Origin: an uncultured Gemmatimonadales bacterium
GTDB lineage: Bacteria > Gemmatimonadota > Gemmatimonadetes > Longimicrobiales > RSA9
NCBI GenBank assembly: GCA_963798845.1
Contig: CAWCUS010000006.1
Coordinates: 352,001-416,000, forward strand
Direction: 5' to 3'
DNA: 64,000 bases
Shown here: in pieces, positions 35,142 through 45,269 of the stretch
Layout: every line of letters begins with the position of its first letter
How positions within the stretch are numbered: position 1 is the stretch's first letter
Made by a program: the position numbers and the translations under genes
Notes under the pieces: model-generated
The model's input: the letters and a program-made list of their open reading frames with translations, nothing else
The model's database searches: none
Told to the model about the DNA's origin: nothing

Positions 35142-37316
35142 TCAGAAGAGCGCGTCGAAGTATATGTCCGCACGCCACTGCCGGACCGGACGGATCGCCC
35201 GGGCGATGTCGATCCGCACGAGCCCGTCCAGCACGCTCCCCCCCACACCGACCGAGACGGCCACATCGGCGCTTTCGAAGTCGGCTCGGTCTCCCGCCCA
35301 GCCGGCGTCCGAGAACAGCGCCACGCGGGCGCCGGGGAAGTCGTTCGCCACCTCCAGCCGCGCGCGAGCGTAGTCGCGCCCGGCGAAAGCGCCCGCGGCG
35401 AACCCGCGCAGGGTCGGCGCCCCACCCAGGAACCAGCGCGCCTGCGGGGAGACGGATTCCGGCTCGTCGCCGGGGCCGAGCGTCGTGCCCCCACCCAGCT
35501 CGAGGGCGCCCATCAGCCGACCGGGCAGCGGCGCCCCTCCGTGCAGCGTCAGCCCTGGCCGGACGAAGTCGTACGTTCCGGTCTCGGCGGTGACGTCGAG
35601 CCAGGCGCCCCATCGGAAGCCGGTCGGGTCGAGGCCCCGGTCCGTGCCGAAGCCCAGGGCCATCCCGACCTGGTCGGCCGTTGCCGCGCCCGGCGCGTCG
35701 GCGAACACCCGCGACGTGTCGAACGCGTGGGGAACGCTGAAATCGGTCCCGGTGAAAACGGGTGCCTGATGCTCTCCGTACAGGCGCAGCCGGTAGTGCC
35801 CTTCGCCCACGGCCGGAGACAGGGTGAGCTCTGCTCCCGTCGCCGCGAAGTAGAGGCCATCATCCCGGCCGACGAGCAGCGCACCGAGTGAATTGGCGAT
35901 TCCGAAGGGCCTGAGCGCGGGCTCCGACGAGGCGAGGCGTCGGTACCCTGCGAGGCGCCAGGTCCGACGCAACGTCGGGAGCTGGAGGCCCAACTCGGCG
36001 CGCGGGACCAGGTCCGCCGTGCCGAGGCGGCCGGTCAGGTCGGCCTGGAGGCGTCCAAGGTCCCAGTCCACGCGCGCTCCGAGCGAGAGGCCCTCCACGC
36101 GATTGTACCGGACCAGGCCACTGCGCAGCGCCCAGGGCCAGCTGAACACCGGGCGCTCGAGGGCCCACGGAGCGGCGGGGATGAGATCGAGTCTCTCGCC
36201 CAGGTCGCGCAGGTCGGCCTCCGCGATCAGGGGTTGACCCTGCGTGAAGATGGACGGTGGCAGGAACTCACTCGTCAGGAGCGCCGAAGTGTCGTCCGGG
36301 ATGACGACGTCGTAGCCCCAGTACGGCTCCTTCTCGCGGGCACCCGGCACCCCGGCGAGCTTCAGCTTCAGGGGTGGCAGCTCGGGGAGCCCGAACCGGT
36401 CGGGCTCGACTTCATAGTCGGAGTAGGTGACCTCCAGGTCGAGAGGGAAGTGGGCGGCGCCCAGCTGGAGCGATCCGTCGAACGCCATGAGACGCGGCAG
36501 CCACCACCGCATTTCCCAGAGTCCATACTCCACGGTGATGTAGCGGATCTCGAAGCGGACGGGCTTGAGGATTCCCGGAATGTCGTCGGTGTCCTCGGCG
36601 TCGTCGGGGTCGAGGGTGCGCATGTCACGATCCAGATCGAAGTCCCGCGCCGGGCGGAACACCGCCTGCACGATGGCGTGGTCGTCCATCTCGATCCAGA
36701 ACGACCCCGTCACCAGCCTGATGTCGCGCCGGCGCGGAGTGACCCGCAGCTCCACGAGGCGGATCGAGCGCCCGTCCGGCAGCCGGATGACGGTGGTGTC
36801 CCCCGTCGCGTACCGGTACACGGACTCCCCGTTCCTCACGAGCGGGTGCCAAGCGAACCCATCCTCGTCGGGCGTCAGCCAGAGCCGATCGGCCCCGGGC
36901 TCGGGTATGAAGGACTGCGCCCAGTCCTCCAGGTCATCGGGGATCTGCACGCCGGGGATCGCCACCGGGATCGCCTCGCGTGCGCCCAGCACCTCCACGC
37001 GCGTCACCCCGTCCCGCCTCCAGTCCACGCGCTCTGCGCTCTCGCGTCGAAAGAGCAGGCGGTCCCGGCGGAGTGCCCTGAGGCCCACGGAAACGCGCTG
37101 GCGGACCAGGGCGCGGTAGCGGAACACAGACGCGTCGAACAGGCCCCGGTGCTCTCGCGCGAGCCGCACCAGCTCCCGCGTGGCCGCGTCCGCGTACGCC
37201 GTCGCCATCGCCGCGGAGTCGGGCGGCGGGAGCAGCGTGTCGGCAGGCGGGGCCGTCGCCCCGCCGACGGAGACGGAAGCAGTCTGGAGGAAGGCGAACA
37301 GCAGCGAAATGGCCAT
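35142..37316 (-). CDS. Exported protein with a C-terminal outer-membrane beta-barrel-like region
   Basis: Signal peptide, RYNRVEGLSLG motif, amphipathic beta strands and a C-terminal Phe. Confidence 0.65.
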   Translation of the reverse strand: MAISLLFAFLQTASVSVGGATAPPADTLLPPPDSAAMATAYADAATRELVRLAREHRGLFDASVFRYRALVRQRVSVGLRALRRDRLLFRRESAERVDWRRDGVTRVEVLGAREAIPVAIPGVQIPDDLEDWAQSFIPEPGADRLWLTPDEDGFAWHPLVRNGESVYRYATGDTTVIRLPDGRSIRLVELRVTPRRRDIRLVTGSFWIEMDDHAIVQAVFRPARDFDLDRDMRTLDPDDAEDTDDIPGILKPVRFEIRYITVEYGLWEMRWWLPRLMAFDGSLQLGAAHFPLDLEVTYSDYEVEPDRFGLPELPPLKLKLAGVPGAREKEPYWGYDVVIPDDTSALLTSEFLPPSIFTQGQPLIAEADLRDLGERLDLIPAAPWALERPVFSWPWALRSGLVRYNRVEGLSLGARVDWDLGRLQADLTGRLGTADLVPRAELGLQLPTLRRTWRLAGYRRLASSEPALRPFGIANSLGALLVGRDDGLYFAATGAELTLSPAVGEGHYRLRLYGEHQAPVFTGTDFSVPHAFDTSRVFADAPGAATADQVGMALGFGTDRGLDPTGFRWGAWLDVTAETGTYDFVRPGLTLHGGAPLPGRLMGALELGGGTTLGPGDEPESVSPQARWFLGGAPTLRGFAAGAFAGRDYARARLEVANDFPGARVALFSDAGWAGDRADFESADVAVSVGVGGSVLDGLVRIDIARAIRPVRQWRADIYFDALF

Positions 37317-39495: not shown

Positions 39496-39621
39496 GCGTC
39501 CTCCTCGGACCATGATGGTGTGGGCAACGTGCGCCCCAGCCGCCGCGCGGGGCAAGGGTAGCGCCAACGCGGGGTGCGCCATTGCCTTTTCCCCCCGGCT
39601 CGCCCACCTTCTAGACCGATC

Positions 39622-40617
39622 GTGACCGAGATACTGATCACCGGCGCAACCGGCTTCGTCGGCTCGCATCTCGTCGAGCTGCTTGGCCGGCGGGGGCTGC
39701 GCGCGCGGGCACTGGTGCGGGCCACGAGCGACACCGCTCTGATCCGCCACCACGGGCTCGAGTGCGTCCCGGGTGATGTCACCGATTCAGCATCCCTGAC
39801 GGAGGCCGTTCGGGGAGCGGATGTGGTGATGCACCTGGCCGGGGCCACCCGGGCGCTGACGGCGGACGAGTTCTTCCGCGTCAATGCCGGCGGTACCCGG
39901 AACCTCCTGGCCGCGCTGGGAGGCGGCGACGGCCGTCGCGTGGTGCTTCTAAGCTCTCTAGCCGCGGCGGGTCCTGCGCGCGGGCGCGAGGTTCGCCCGG
40001 GCGACGAGCCCCGGCCGCTGACCGCTTACGGGCGCAGCAAGGTCGAGGCCGAGCGCCTGGTCCTCGGGCACCCGGGGATATCGGGTGTGGTGCTGCGGCC
40101 GCCTGCGGTATACGGTCCGAGGGATCGTGACCTGTTGACGTTCTTCAAGCTTGCGCGGTGGGGGATCCTGCCCGCGCTCGGTGGAGCGGACCGGCGCCTG
40201 CAGATGGTCCACGCCACCGACGTGGCGGAGGCCGTGATGGCCGCGGCGGAAGGCTCGGCGACAGGGATATTCCACATCGCCGAGCCAACCTCGTACGCGT
40301 GGGGTGAGGTGCTGGACCGCGTGGCCCGGGCCGTCGGGCGAGCGGGAGTGCGCGTACGGGTGCCGGGTGCGGCAGTGAGGGCGGCGGCTGGGGTCAGCGA
40401 GCTGATCGGGCGGATGCTGCGGCGGCCGGGCATCTTCGATCGGGACAAGGCCAGCGAGCTGCTGGCGGATGCATGGCTGTGTGAAACCGATGCGGCGTTC
40501 GAAGCGTTCGGTTTCCGGGCATCCGTGCCGCTCGGAGAAGGACTGAAGGAGACGGCGGACTGGTACACGGCACACGGCTGGCTTCAGGCCGTGGGCGGCA
40601 CCGAGGCAGCGATATGA
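39622..40617 (+). CDS. NAD-dependent epimerase/dehydratase (extended SDR), candidate ceramide reductase CerR
   Basis: TGATGFVG and YGRSK motifs; ATGA overlap with the spt-like gene. Confidence 0.75.
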   Translation: MTEILITGATGFVGSHLVELLGRRGLRARALVRATSDTALIRHHGLECVPGDVTDSASLTEAVRGADVVMHLAGATRALTADEFFRVNAGGTRNLLAALGGGDGRRVVLLSSLAAAGPARGREVRPGDEPRPLTAYGRSKVEAERLVLGHPGISGVVLRPPAVYGPRDRDLLTFFKLARWGILPALGGADRRLQMVHATDVAEAVMAAAEGSATGIFHIAEPTSYAWGEVLDRVARAVGRAGVRVRVPGAAVRAAAGVSELIGRMLRRPGIFDRDKASELLADAWLCETDAAFEAFGFRASVPLGEGLKETADWYTAHGWLQAVGGTEAAI

Positions 40618-41801
40618 GTCTCTTTGAAAAGTGCTACGGCTTTACCCAGGCTCGCGAAGTCCAGGCGGCCGGGTACTACCCGTACTTTCGGGCGATCCAG
40701 GAGTCGCACGACACCGAAGTGCTCATCGACGGTGAGCGCAAGGTCATGGTCGGATCGAACAACTACCTCGGTCTGACGCACCATCCCAGGGTGGTGGCCG
40801 CGGCGGCGGATGCCATCCGTCGTTACGGCAGCGGGTGCACCGGGAGCCGGTTCCTCAATGGCACGCTGGACCTGCACGAGCGGCTGGAGGCGGAGCTGGC
40901 GGAGTTTCTGAACAAGGAAGCCGCCCTGGTCTTCAGCACCGGGTTCCAGACGAACCTCGGCGCCATCGCCACGCTGGCGGGCCGCAACGACTTCATCATC
41001 TCCGACAAGCTGAATCACGCCAGCATCGTGGACGCATCGCGGCTCGCCTACGCCGAGGTCCAGCGGTACGCCCACAACGACATGGACGCGCTGGAGCGAG
41101 TGCTCCAGAAGCTGCCGGATGAGGCCGGAAAGCTGATCGTCACCGACGGCATCTTCTCGATGGAAGGGGATATCACCGACCTTCCGGCCATCACTTCGCT
41201 GGCGGAGGTCCACGGCGCCAAGGTGCTGGTGGACGATGCCCACGCGTTCGGCGTGCTCGGACACCGGGGCGCCGGCACGGCGGAGCACTTCGGCCTGGAG
41301 AACGAAGTGGACCTCATTGTCACCACGTTCTCCAAATCGCTGGCGTCCATCGGCGGCGTCGTGGCCGGGCCGGAGCCCGTGATCCATTACCTGAAGCACC
41401 ACGCCCGTCCGCTCATCTTCAGCGCGAGCATGCCTCCGTCGGCGGTTGCCACGGTGCTCGCCGCGCTCGACGTGCTGCGCACCGAGCCGGAGCGGATCGA
41501 CGCCCTGTGGCGCAACACCCGCAAGATGCAGCAGGGGCTGAAGGACCTCGGGTACGACATCGGTATGAGCGAGACTCCCATCATCCCGGTCGTGATCGGC
41601 GAGCTGGACCGTCTGCTCATGTTCTGGCGGGAGATCTTCGACGCCGGCGTCTTCACCAACCCGGTCACTCCGCCTGCGGTGCCCGAGAACTCCTGCCGGC
41701 TCCGGATCTCCCTCATGGCGACGCACACCGACGAGCACATCGAGCGCGTCCTGGAAGCGTTCGCACACGTAGGGCGGCAGATGGCGGTGATCCAGCCGTG
41801 A
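40614..41801 (+). CDS. spt: Alpha-oxoamine synthase, probable serine palmitoyltransferase
   Basis: YPYFRAI...DTEV...GSNNYLGL, GSRFLNGT, NHASI, DDAH and TFSKSLASIGG, resembling Bacteroidota-type Spt; gene context agrees. Confidence 0.75.
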   Translation: MSLFEKCYGFTQAREVQAAGYYPYFRAIQESHDTEVLIDGERKVMVGSNNYLGLTHHPRVVAAAADAIRRYGSGCTGSRFLNGTLDLHERLEAELAEFLNKEAALVFSTGFQTNLGAIATLAGRNDFIISDKLNHASIVDASRLAYAEVQRYAHNDMDALERVLQKLPDEAGKLIVTDGIFSMEGDITDLPAITSLAEVHGAKVLVDDAHAFGVLGHRGAGTAEHFGLENEVDLIVTTFSKSLASIGGVVAGPEPVIHYLKHHARPLIFSASMPPSAVATVLAALDVLRTEPERIDALWRNTRKMQQGLKDLGYDIGMSETPIIPVVIGELDRLLMFWREIFDAGVFTNPVTPPAVPENSCRLRISLMATHTDEHIERVLEAFAHVGRQMAVIQP

Positions 41802-42940
41802 GCGGAGCGGCGGGAAGCGCGGTGCTGGTGGCACCCGCCAGAGACAGGGCAACCCGGGAGCGTTTCATACGCTTCCCGTGGAAGGTGTACGCCGGCGACC
41901 CGGCGTGGGTTCCGCCGCTCCTGGCCGATGTCCGCAAGCTGCTCGACCCTGCACACCCGTTCCATCAGCACGCCGACTCGGAGTTCTTCCTGGCGCTGCG
42001 CGACGGGGATGTCGTGGGCCGCATCGCCGCGGTCGTGAATCACGTGTACAACGATTTCCACGAGACCCGGACCGGATTCATCGGGCTGTTCGAGTCGGTG
42101 GACGACGATGCGGTTGCGGGCGCGCTGCTGGACACCGCCGCGGACTGGCTCGTGGCGCGCGGGATGAGCGAGGTGATCGGGCCGTTCAACCTCTCCACGA
42201 ACGACGAGCTCTACTCGCCCGGGATCCTGCTGGACGCCTTCGAGCGGCCTCCGGTCCTCCTGATGGCGCACAACCCGCCGTACTACCGCCGCCTGTTCGA
42301 GGCCGCAGGATGGGAAAAGCAGCGGGACCTGCTGGCGTACTGGCTGGATGGAGAGGAGCTTCCGAAGCGCCTGGTCCGGGGCGTGGAGCGGCTGACGGGC
42401 AGCATCGAGGGTCTCGAGGTCCGGCAGCTGGAGATGAAACGGCTCGACCGCGAGGTGGAGCTGATCAAGGACGTCTACAACAGCGCGTGGCAGCGGAACT
42501 GGGGCTTCGCGCCGCTGACCGATGCGGAGATCCAGCACCTCGCCCACGACCTGAAGCCGATCGTCGACCCGCGCTTCGCCCTCATCGCCGAGGTGCGTGG
42601 CGAGCCCGTGGGCTTCGCCCTCGCCCTTCCCGATTTCAACCAGGCGCTCAAGCACGTCAACGGGCGCCTCTTTCCGATCGGGATCTTCAAGCTGCTCTGG
42701 TACCGACGACGCATCGATCGCGTCCGCGTCTTCACGCTCGGGCTCAAGCCCGAGTACCAGCGGCGGGGCATCGACGCGCTGTTCTACCTGCGCATCTACG
42801 AGAACGGGTTTGCGGCCGGAATCCACAAGGCCGAAGCTTCGTGGATCCTGGAGGACAACTGGGGCATGCGCCGGGGGCTCGAGCGCATGGGCGCGTACGT
42901 GTACAAGACCTATCGCGTCTACGGTCGCGCCCTCGCCTGA
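41798..42940 (+). CDS. GNAT-related N-acyltransferase, probable bacterial ceramide synthase (bCerS)
   Basis: WVPPL, GRIAA, GPFNLSTNDE, HNPPYY, NWGFAP, LPDFNQ and SWILEDN motifs; GTGA overlap with spt. Confidence 0.7.
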   Translation: MSGAAGSAVLVAPARDRATRERFIRFPWKVYAGDPAWVPPLLADVRKLLDPAHPFHQHADSEFFLALRDGDVVGRIAAVVNHVYNDFHETRTGFIGLFESVDDDAVAGALLDTAADWLVARGMSEVIGPFNLSTNDELYSPGILLDAFERPPVLLMAHNPPYYRRLFEAAGWEKQRDLLAYWLDGEELPKRLVRGVERLTGSIEGLEVRQLEMKRLDREVELIKDVYNSAWQRNWGFAPLTDAEIQHLAHDLKPIVDPRFALIAEVRGEPVGFALALPDFNQALKHVNGRLFPIGIFKLLWYRRRIDRVRVFTLGLKPEYQRRGIDALFYLRIYENGFAAGIHKAEASWILEDNWGMRRGLERMGAYVYKTYRVYGRALA

Positions 42941-42955: not shown

Positions 42956-43732
42956 GTGTCACGGCCGTCGCAGTCCACAGCCGTGAGACGCGCCGCCACT
43001 GCGGTGGCCGCCGCGCTGCTTCTGGCACTCACGGCTGGCGCGTGGCTCGTCCTCGGCGGCCTGGACTGGCCCGCCCGCGCATTCACGGCGGCGCTGCTCG
43101 TCCCGATCCCGGCCGCCCTCGGCCTCCAGGCCCTCCTGCTCGACCAGCTCCCCGCTGAAGAGGCTCGCGAGTCCGTCTACACCTCGTCGGCCGCGTCCAT
43201 ATGGGTGCTCGCGGGCGCTGCCATGCTGGCCGCACGCTTCAGCGAATTCACGCGCGCCGAGCTCTGGCTCAGCGCCGCTCCGCCCGGGATCACGGCCCTT
43301 GCCGCAGCCGGCGCCTTCGGCGCGGGCATCGGCATCATGGTCATTGCGCGGCTGCTCCGCTTCCCCGAGCCCGAAATCGTCTCGTATCTGATCCCGCGCT
43401 CCACGAGCGAGAAGATCGCGTTCACCGGGCTGTCCATCTCCGCCGGCATCGCGGAGGAGCTGGTGTTCAGGAGCTTCCTGATGGCGGCACTGGCGCGCGC
43501 CTTCGGGTCGCTGCCCCTGGCCGTGGCCGCCAGCATCGCCGTCTTCTCGGTGGCTCACGCGTACCAGGGCTGGCGGGGGCTCGCCCAGGTGGCGCTGCTC
43601 GCCGGCATTCTCACCGCCCCGCTGCTCCTGACCGGGAGCGTCTACCCGGCCATGGCCGCGCACGCGGCGCTGGACATCGCTGCCGGCCTCTTCCTCCACC
43701 CCTTGCTCGAGCCGGAAGCGCCACGGGATTGA
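42956..43732 (+). CDS. CPBP (CAAX protease-like) intramembrane metalloprotease
   Basis: EELVFR, FSVAH and AHAALD motifs; multiple TM helices. Confidence 0.88.
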   Translation: MSRPSQSTAVRRAATAVAAALLLALTAGAWLVLGGLDWPARAFTAALLVPIPAALGLQALLLDQLPAEEARESVYTSSAASIWVLAGAAMLAARFSEFTRAELWLSAAPPGITALAAAGAFGAGIGIMVIARLLRFPEPEIVSYLIPRSTSEKIAFTGLSISAGIAEELVFRSFLMAALARAFGSLPLAVAASIAVFSVAHAYQGWRGLAQVALLAGILTAPLLLTGSVYPAMAAHAALDIAAGLFLHPLLEPEAPRD

Positions 43733-43968: not shown

Positions 43969-44028
43969 CGTACACACAGGCGGGCATGGGGTCGCCCGGG
44001 CGGGCGACGGCCGGAGAGGATCGAGGCC

Positions 44029-44445
44029 ATGATTCTGCGGATCTCGTACGAGGAAGTGACGGCACTGAATGCCGCTGCCGAGCGACTGCTGTCGTCGAGG
44101 TCCGGCGGAGGAGTCGTCGCGGCGCCGCCGGAGCTGCTGGCCGAGCTGGAGTCGAGGCTCCCGCTGCCCGGCGACATCTCGCTCGAGACCCTGGCGGAGC
44201 AGATGCGACTTTCGCGCGCACTGGACGTGGTGCAGGAGCATCTCAAGCGCCGGATGGACGCGCTGGTGATGGAGCAGTACGTGGGCTCCGACGACGCGGT
44301 CAACGCGTACTTCGACTACGCCCACCTTCTCACGGTCCGCTCGCGGCTGCGCGGCATCGGTCGCGAGATGGAGCTGATGATCGAGCTCATGACGGGCGAA
44401 TCGCCCACGCAGGACGTAGCGACGGACGTGACCTTCCCGGATTGA
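44029..44445 (+). CDS. Hypothetical protein
   Basis: ATG follows an RBS-like GAGG; helical, protein-like composition (MILRISYEEV...VTFPD). Confidence 0.7.
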   Translation: MILRISYEEVTALNAAAERLLSSRSGGGVVAAPPELLAELESRLPLPGDISLETLAEQMRLSRALDVVQEHLKRRMDALVMEQYVGSDDAVNAYFDYAHLLTVRSRLRGIGREMELMIELMTGESPTQDVATDVTFPD

Positions 44446-44468: not shown

Positions 44469-45269
44469 ATGAGAGCGGCCGGACCAGCAGGGTCCGGCCG
44501 CTCCGTCATCGGGGAGGCAGTGATCGACACCACGACCGCCCGGCCGCCGGACCTCTCGCACGAAACAGTCTTCATCACCGGAGCGTCGCGTGGGCTCGGC
44601 GCCGCGCTCGCGCTCGCTTTCGCCCGCGCCGGTGCACGCCTGGTGCTGTGCGCGCGGGGGGAGGACGCGCTGGCCGACGCTGCAGGGCGAGCTGCAGGGG
44701 AGGGGTCGAGCGTGGAGTGGCGCGCGGCGGACGTGACAGATGAAGCGGCGGTGCGTGCGCTGGTCCTGGCGGCGGAGCAACGGCTCGGCCCGATCTCCGT
44801 GCTGGTGAACAACGCGTCGATGCTCGGATCCCGCGTCCCCTTGCGGGAACAGCGCCTCGCAGACTGGAGGCGGACGCTGGCCGTGAACGTCACGGGGACG
44901 CTCATCCCGGTCCAGGCTGTGCTGCCGGGGATGCGGCGTGCGGGCCGTGGCTCCATCATCAACGTCACGTCGGGAGTGGGGAACGTCGCGCGCAGGCGCT
45001 GGGGCGCATACGCCGTGGGGAAGTGGGCGGTGGAGGGGCTGACGTGGAACCTGGCGCTGGAAGAGGCTGAGGTCGGCATCCGGGTGAACGCGGTGGATCC
45101 GGGACGGCTGCGCACGGACATGCGCCGAGCCGCGTATCCGGAGGAGGATCCGGAGGACCCGGCGCCGCCGGAATCGGCCGTGGGCGTGTTCCTGTGGCTG
45201 GCCTCCAGCGCGTCGGCCGGGGTAACGGGCGAGCGCTTCCAAGCGCTCGAATGGAATCGACAGGGATGA
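44469..45269 (+). CDS. SDR family oxidoreductase
   Basis: TGASRGLG, NNAS, YAVGK and VNAVDPG motifs. The start could be 44520. Confidence 0.9.
   Translation: MRAAGPAGSGRSVIGEAVIDTTTARPPDLSHETVFITGASRGLGAALALAFARAGARLVLCARGEDALADAAGRAAGEGSSVEWRAADVTDEAAVRALVLAAEQRLGPISVLVNNASMLGSRVPLREQRLADWRRTLAVNVTGTLIPVQAVLPGMRRAGRGSIINVTSGVGNVARRRWGAYAVGKWAVEGLTWNLALEEAEVGIRVNAVDPGRLRTDMRRAAYPEEDPEDPAPPESAVGVFLWLASSASAGVTGERFQALEWNRQG

Follow-up and report, generated by a model that had tools for sequence, protein, structure and literature searches.

Do bacteria of the phylum Gemmatimonadota have the means to make ceramides? The question is raised by a compact operon on contig CAWCUS010000006.1 (C6) of the uncultured Gemmatimonadales assembly GCA_963798845.1, a genome of 4.26 Mb in 6 contigs that is 96 % complete and belongs to a bacterium of soil or sediment. 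The operon lies within a stretch of 64,000 nucleotides (positions 352,001 to 416,000 of the contig, G+C content ~70 %), hereafter called the window, to which all coordinates refer. It codes for an extended short-chain dehydrogenase/reductase (SDR), an alpha-oxoamine synthase (AOS) and a tandem-GNAT protein, and each of the three is homologous to one enzyme of bacterial ceramide synthesis: the reductase CerR, the serine palmitoyltransferase Spt and the ceramide synthase bCerS. Their genes remain adjacent across many genomes and two of them occur as a natural fusion. The operon is therefore likely, with a probability of roughly 0.8, to encode a three-enzyme bacterial route to dihydroceramide. 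Its genes are the following:

39622..40617, + strand: CerR-like extended SDR, NAD(P)-dependent reductase, 331 aa (PF01370 Epimerase, 2.1e-33)
40614..41801, + strand: Spt-like AOS, 395 aa (PF00155, 7.7e-59)
41798..42940, + strand: bCerS-like tandem-GNAT N-acyltransferase, 380 aa (PF00583 GNAT, 9.7e-08, its sole Pfam match)

The initial annotation of this DNA had described three genes of these classes joined by 4-nt overlaps of start and stop codons, and the sequence agrees on every count. At the SDR/AOS junction, GATATGAGTC, the SDR stop and the ATG of the AOS share the motif ATGA, and at the AOS/GNAT junction, CCGTGAGCG, the AOS stop and the GTG start of the GNAT share GTGA. The three classes correspond to the Pfam matches given above. 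The longest possible open reading frame (ORF) of the SDR begins at 39574.

In the proposed pathway, the Spt-like enzyme, which depends on pyridoxal phosphate (PLP), would form 3-ketosphinganine by condensing a long-chain acyl thioester with an amino acid, in all likelihood L-serine. The tandem GNAT would N-acylate the amine from acyl-CoA, and the extended SDR would then reduce the 3-keto group with NAD(P)H, yielding dihydroceramide. Acylation would come first and reduction second, the order proposed for Caulobacter, as cited in passages of PMC9386255 and PMC11324152. The AOS would probably take acyl-CoA directly, as Bacteroidota-type Spt does. The substrates, the reaction order and the product named here are predictions, as would be any assignment of a cellular location.

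How firmly can the synthase be called an Spt? Its top NCBIfam model is NF047600 (Bacteroidota/CFB-type Spt) with 556.8 bits, ~139 bits above the runners-up, which comprise BioF, BioF/Kbl-related and beta-proteobacterial Spt models at ~417 bits. Among solved structures, the 10 best distinct sequences in the PDB are all named serine palmitoyltransferase (SPT; 457, 330 and ~310 bits), followed by BioF/Kbl and Kbl entries at 270-288 bits and BioF at 224-238 bits. Family and structure thus concur in placing the AOS next to the Bacteroidota-type Spt (3a2b/8guh; Bacteroidales, NF047600). The alignment to the best SPT chain runs without gaps over 389 residues, and the lysine of the FSKS motif, the His and the Asp-x-x-His positions all match. 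By analogy with known AOS enzymes, this lysine is taken to be the PLP-binding residue and the other aligned positions to have their usual roles; 3a2b/8guh is presumably the enzyme of Sphingobacterium multivorum.

The same question was addressed by a maximum-likelihood tree of 24 rows, arbitrarily rooted, with three long-branched rows and with no cysteate acyltransferase, HemA or Caulobacter sequence among them. An unrooted split with 100/100 support groups 17 of the 24 rows: the window AOS, six relatives, the N-terminal half of the fusion protein P0124 described below, and references. On this side fall all five Spt references, with the Spt of Bacteroidales, Sphingomonas, E. coli and Roseomonas, together with the Streptomyces, Rubrobacter and Aureispira AOS and the one from a Priestia plasmid. 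Across the split lie E. coli BioF and Kbl, three more BioF/Kbl references and both of the further AOS paralogs that the genome carries, which are 38 % and 35 % identical to the window AOS. The best models of these two paralogs are BioF and Kbl, both below cut-off, and one of them joins Kbl at 98/90.

These data bear directly on the idea that the synthase is a housekeeping BioF of biotin synthesis or a Kbl of threonine catabolism, with unrelated neighbours. The ~417 bits that BioF and Kbl-related models still reach would fit such an enzyme. However, the AOS lies outside the BioF/Kbl side of the split, BioF-like and Kbl-like paralogs are encoded separately in the genome, the AOS gene has no bio or tdh genes for neighbours, and the linkage to GNAT and SDR is conserved across phyla. 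The probability of this explanation is close to nil, and a BioF/Kbl identity was rejected on the tree and the PDB ranking. The claim of the initial annotation that the synthase is closer to Bacteroidota Spt than to BioF or Kbl has held on the NCBIfam scores, and the grouping with BioF/Kbl that was named there as a refuting outcome did not occur. It is also extremely improbable that the trio makes sulfonolipids of the capnine type, for which the synthase would condense an acyl thioester with cysteate and the product would then be reduced and N-acylated. The enzyme classes (AOS, reductase, N-acyltransferase) would suit that pathway, but the cysteate-C-fatty acyltransferase chains 28eh and 7u7h score 247 and 235 bits against the AOS, below Kbl and far below the 457 bits of SPT. 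It is on this PDB ranking, the tree having no cysteate acyltransferase reference, that the sulfonolipid reading was rejected.

The AOS encoded on a plasmid of Priestia megaterium (L019; Bacillota) shares 50 % identity with the window AOS, falls in the Spt clade and scores 525 bits on NF047600. Its gene adjoins a methyltransferase gene and an acyltransferase-family gene, with no trio GNAT or SDR beside it.

The relation of the GNAT to bCerS had to be established by a more indirect route. No specific NCBIfam family matched it, a sequence search of the PDB gave no match, and its named close homologs belong to Longimicrobiales/Gemmatimonadota metagenome-assembled genomes (MAGs). A tblastn search of annotated plasmid records with the GNAT matched 47 records, of which four were inspected; the homologs align over their full length with 34-42 % identity. 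In Sphingomonas parapaucimobilis (34 % over 100 % of the length), the GNAT gene closes a block that encodes an NAD(P)H-binding protein, an acyl carrier protein (ACP), an AOS, the product of one further gene, LptF, LptG and a desaturase. The Roseomonas gilardii homolog (42 %) is flanked by LptF/G-family permeases, a sterol-desaturase-family gene and a nucleotidyltransferase gene, and in Streptomyces sp. NBC_01001 the gene order is AOS, GNAT, epimerase. The E. coli PN43 homolog is yghO, which stands beside genes for a fatty acyl-AMP ligase, an epimerase, an ACP, an AOS and an LptF/LptG pair; YghO is 35.3 % identical to the window GNAT over 94 % of its length (E 5e-59). Reverse searches of the genome with the YghO, Sphingomonas, Roseomonas and Streptomyces GNATs each returned the window GNAT as the only match, which is a single-copy gene. 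The Figure 9 legend of PMC9386255 lists "aca: CC_1154, yghO ECD_02850, Swit_3908 ..." for dihydroceramide synthesis, and a passage of PMC11324152 gives cerS as CC_1154 and cerR as CC_1164. Because the GNAT matches YghO and YghO is equated with CC_1154, the window GNAT is, by way of YghO, homologous to the ceramide synthase family described from bacteria.

The E. coli PN43 record (L015, NZ_MG591698.1) carries a plasmid label and appears chromosomal; it holds the whole aasR-cerR-acpR-spt block adjoining yghO and a second LptF/LptG pair, near the glc operon. The Roseomonas homolog bears the label "dATP pyrophosphohydrolase"; a literature search pairing this name with ceramide found nothing and the lead was dropped.

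An AlphaFold2 model of the GNAT, built on a 46-sequence alignment, shows a tandem-GNAT fold (pLDDT 93.4, pTM 0.90). Its nearest structures by Foldseek are 2wpw, MAB_4324, a glucosamine N-acetyltransferase and the mycothiol synthase MshD (E 3e-14 to 7e-12; TM 0.54-0.62; identity 12-16 %). The two-domain fold is thus common to the window GNAT, 2wpw of the clavulanic-acid pathway, 7q3a (MAB_4324) and 1ozp/2c27 (MshD); these enzymes acetylate small polar amines and not a lipid amine with long acyl chains. The predicted fold fits an acyl-CoA-dependent N-acyltransferase and is silent on chain length. A protein of 784 aa, P0121, aligns to the GNAT in two stretches, as if the entire 380-aa tandem-GNAT unit had been duplicated in tandem, and has no NCBIfam match.

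The reductase pairs with known cluster reductases in both directions of search. When the in-cluster enzymes of E. coli PN43, S. parapaucimobilis and Streptomyces are searched against the genome, the window SDR ranks first each time (105, 96 and 150 bits), ahead of second-best matches at 68, 74 and 105 bits. Conversely, the best match of the window SDR is the in-cluster reductase in 5 of 5 records, giving reciprocal best hits with E values from 2.3e-67 to 2.8e-25; identities are 48 % for Rubrobacter, 39 % for Streptomyces, 34 % for E. coli, 32 % for Sphingomonas and 30 % for Aureispira. The SDR also aligns weakly, over nearly its full length, with NDUFA9 chains (39-47 bits), and a resemblance of CerR to NDUFA9 has been reported in PMC11087976. 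The homology of the three proteins to Spt, bCerS (CC_1154/YghO) and CerR, on which the initial annotation had built its case, is therefore upheld by the tree, the YghO match and the reciprocal best hits, respectively.

Do the three genes belong together? All 7 of 7 relatives keep SDR-AOS-GNAT in their loci, of which one ends at a contig edge just before the GNAT, and this conservation indicates that the arrangement is not due to chance. In a wider sample of Gemmatimonadota, which takes in genomes flagged as unpublished (G014, G077, G194), the GNAT is present in 245 of 401 genomes, with 162/166, 28/30, 20/70 and 13/93 in individual families and 0 in three small ones. AOS, GNAT and SDR are adjacent in 12 of 14 loci from eight families. 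The order SDR-AOS-GNAT is that of the window's family and one other (4 loci; L028-L031), and AOS-GNAT-SDR is found in five families, f4 to f8 (8 loci; L034-L041), as in Streptomyces and Rubrobacter.

Beyond the phylum, species-representative genomes were scanned with a 14-sequence alignment as query, and the best 80 of 583 relatives were considered. Their loci come from Gemmatimonadota, Myxococcota (including Myxococcus dinghuensis), Zixibacteria, Ignavibacteria, Planctomycetota, Spirochaetes, Chloroflexota, Acidobacteriota and others, and show at least 5 distinct gene arrangements. Within 4 kb of the GNAT, 51 of these 80 have both AOS and SDR, 11 an AOS only and 2 an SDR only. Restricting the count to the 56 loci among them with at least 2.5 kb on both sides leaves 40 with both, 5 with AOS only, 1 with SDR only and 10 with neither. 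In addition, a protein of 780 aa, P0124, joins an Spt-like AOS (residues 16-398; NF047600, 470 bits) to a bCerS-like GNAT (residues 422-780), and its N-terminal half falls within the Gemmatimonadota clade of the AOS tree. Its cluster, to which P0271 and P0274 belong, counts 5 members, and three of the five have the full length of 780 aa. That the genes stay adjacent while their order is shuffled, and that a natural fusion exists as well, gives good grounds to believe that the three proteins act jointly. Two members of the P0124 cluster, of 473 and 317 aa on one contig, resemble a split version of the fusion.

Proteins that work together need not make a membrane lipid, and the trio could instead be the core of a specialised-metabolite pathway leading to an N-acylated amino-ketone or amino-alcohol natural product. 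On the Streptomyces sp. NBC_01001 plasmid the trio is indeed followed by a gene for a condensation-domain protein. However, no nonribosomal peptide synthetase (NRPS) or polyketide synthase (PKS) genes are adjacent in the window, and the distribution of the GNAT, present in 245/401 sampled genomes and 162/166 of one family, is more in keeping with a core trait of the envelope than with an accessory metabolite. Such a role is thus very unlikely.

Several observations weigh against dihydroceramide synthesis by the trio. The first concern the AOS, whose 556.8 bits on NF047600 fall short of the equivalog cut-off of 640, as do its scores on other Spt models (NF047599, 417 vs 500; NF047603, 353 vs 670). 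By comparison, the Bacteroidales Spt references of Parabacteroides and Bacteroides finegoldii exceed the NF047600 cut-off with 684 and 700 bits; GNAT-adjacent AOS of Aureispira, Rubrobacter and Streptomyces reach 487, 444 and 377 bits. In the tree, the window AOS sits in a Gemmatimonadota branch separate from every reference Spt, and the amino-acid specificity of the enzyme is not legible from the comparisons made. This leaves room for a trio that makes a non-canonical sphingoid or aminolipid, the synthase preferring alanine, glycine, lysine or another amino acid, and the product being a 1-deoxy-ceramide-like or otherwise headless N-acyl amino alcohol. The sub-cut-off score and the separate branch would both be in keeping with it, and a passage of PMC11334938 mentions that Spt can use alanine and puts forward the hypothesis that divergent "Spt-like" proteins take other amino acids. 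On the other side stand the gapless 457-bit alignment to a solved SPT and the fact that the clade of the window AOS holds references of the Spt type only, so that a product of this kind appears unlikely, although not negligibly so.

Further points concern the GNAT. Its family is huge, with 8987 cluster representatives at E<=0.001 and 1676 at E<=1e-30, and since the GNAT is not always linked to an AOS, membership of the family does not by itself prove ceramide synthase activity. Neither AOS nor SDR lies within 4 kb in 16 of the 80 loci mentioned above, from the best of 583 relatives. The two exceptions among the 14 Gemmatimonadota loci, L032 (genome G019) and L033 (G138), come from one genus, of the same taxonomic order as the window's organism: their GNATs, 48-50 % identical to that of the window, stand alone, neither an Spt-like AOS nor an SDR lying within 7 kb, and the best AOS anywhere in these genomes is a 42 %-identical, BioF-like one. 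It follows from these GNATs without an Spt-like AOS that the family has members acting outside the ceramide trio. The similarity of the SDR to proteobacterial CerR homologs is modest, 29-30 % by tblastn and 32-34 % in the genome search, and the link to the Caulobacter proteins runs through published orthology statements, via YghO and the Sphingomonas counterparts. Lastly, no ceramide kinase, head-group or Lpt-paralog gene was recognised near the cluster, and ceramide production by the organism is deduced from its genes.

Taken as a dihydroceramide operon, how does the locus compare with known systems? The reference is Caulobacter crescentus with Spt (CC_1162/CCNA_01220), bCerS/CerS (CC_1154/CCNA_01212) and CerR (CC_1164/CCNA_01222). 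The two share a PLP-dependent alpha-oxoamine synthase, a GNAT-type N-acyltransferase and an NAD-dependent epimerase-like reductase, and the counterparts of CC_1154 and CC_1164 in E. coli and Sphingomonas are homologs of the window GNAT and SDR. In Caulobacter, however, cerS lies about eight genes from spt, whereas the window trio forms one overlapping operon. Unlike Caulobacter, the window genome has no specialised AcpR or AasR, and neither LptF2/G2 nor kinase or head-group genes are adjacent to the trio. The closest named relatives are instead the trios of Actinomycetota, on the Streptomyces sp. NBC_01001 plasmid and plasmid 1 of Rubrobacter radiotolerans (AOS 50-51 %, GNAT 41 %, SDR 39-48 % identity). 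They are compact, ACP-free and made of overlapping genes like the window trio but have the order AOS-GNAT-SDR instead of SDR-AOS-GNAT. As to the Bacteroidota, whose Spt the window AOS resembles, a passage of PMC11334938 states that spt, bcerS and cerR are not clustered in its sphingolipid-producing members.

The missing accessory genes deserve a closer look. According to a passage of PMC9386255, the spt of alpha-, beta- and gamma-proteobacteria goes together with a specialised AcpR and AasR. A tblastn search of the whole genome with E. coli and Sphingomonas AcpR gave no match, and AasR queries gave only generic ligases of ~25 % identity, elsewhere in the genome. Carrier-protein domains (PF00550) are found in one small gene on contig C5, the rest being in frames of NRPS/PKS size on C2 and C4, and none is near the window. 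The locus is thus not of the five-gene proteobacterial ("Rhodobacteria") kind, in which a dedicated AcpR and AasR co-occur with spt, and the initial annotation was right that the cluster has neither ACP nor acyl-ligase among its genes. Since AcpR and AasR are likewise absent from the Actinomycetota and Aureispira trios, direct use of acyl-CoA is suggested. A genome-wide tblastn search for head-group and transport genes returned only three generic matches to the diacylglycerol kinase (DAGK) family, and weak LptF/G and lipoteichoic acid (LTA) synthase matches elsewhere. The genome encodes LpxC, from which it follows that any sphingolipid would coexist with lipopolysaccharide.

Immediately downstream, 15 nt past the GNAT stop, begins a gene that the initial annotation had also noticed and correctly named:

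42956..43732, + strand: CPBP/Rce1-like intramembrane protease (PF02517, 5.9e-16)

It may be co-transcribed with the trio as a neighbour. A protease gene follows the trio in L007, L028, L029 and L030, all of the window's family, and is absent from 11 other Gemmatimonadota loci; a part in the core system was rejected because the gene is conserved beside the trio only in the window's own family. Farther downstream come a small ORF at 44020-44445, to which no Pfam family was assigned, and a classical SDR (PF00106) at ~44500-45269; the order of protease, small ORF and classical SDR is kept only within that family (L028-L030). A promoter/terminator scan found no terminators and a single promoter-like site at 44442, outside the operon. 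Upstream, on the opposite strand, lies a gene for a pterin-4a-carbinolamine dehydratase, with a class-III aminotransferase gene beyond. Still farther away, at 35142-37316 on the minus strand, a 724-aa ORF without a Pfam match at E<=0.001 has a Gly/Ala/Arg-rich C-terminal part and an aromatic terminal residue, and may encode an outer-membrane protein.

What, then, is new? A passage of PMC11334938 notes that spt, bcerS and cerR "are often found clustered" and the same source reports Spt-like proteins in MAGs of 38 phyla, without naming Gemmatimonadota in its main text. Because clustering of the three genes is already published as widespread, the finding is less novel than the initial annotation implied. 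What the operon adds is one more, unexceptional instance of an established pathway, not a pathway of a new kind. A literature search that did not extend to the original pathway paper or to the supplement of PMC11334938 found nothing on sphingolipids in Gemmatimonadota beyond incidental co-mentions, and the phylum may already be listed in the former. The additions are modest: the trio is widespread in the phylum and occurs in two gene orders and in a fused form, and lone GNATs exist without Spt.

A broader view, to which we give somewhat less than an even chance, is that nearly all members of several Gemmatimonadota families have the ACP-free trio as an envelope trait and that the phylum could be a major unrecognised environmental source of ceramides or non-serine sphingoids. 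The compact ACP-free trio and the natural Spt-CerS fusion would also be a practical minimal system in which to study, in a heterologous host, how bacteria make ceramide. If the proposed function is correct, sphingolipids would be part of the cell envelope in many Gemmatimonadota. This would bear on the reading of ceramide and long-chain-base signals in soils and sediments, and on the nature of the outer membrane in a phylum that has few cultured members and is abundant in these very environments.

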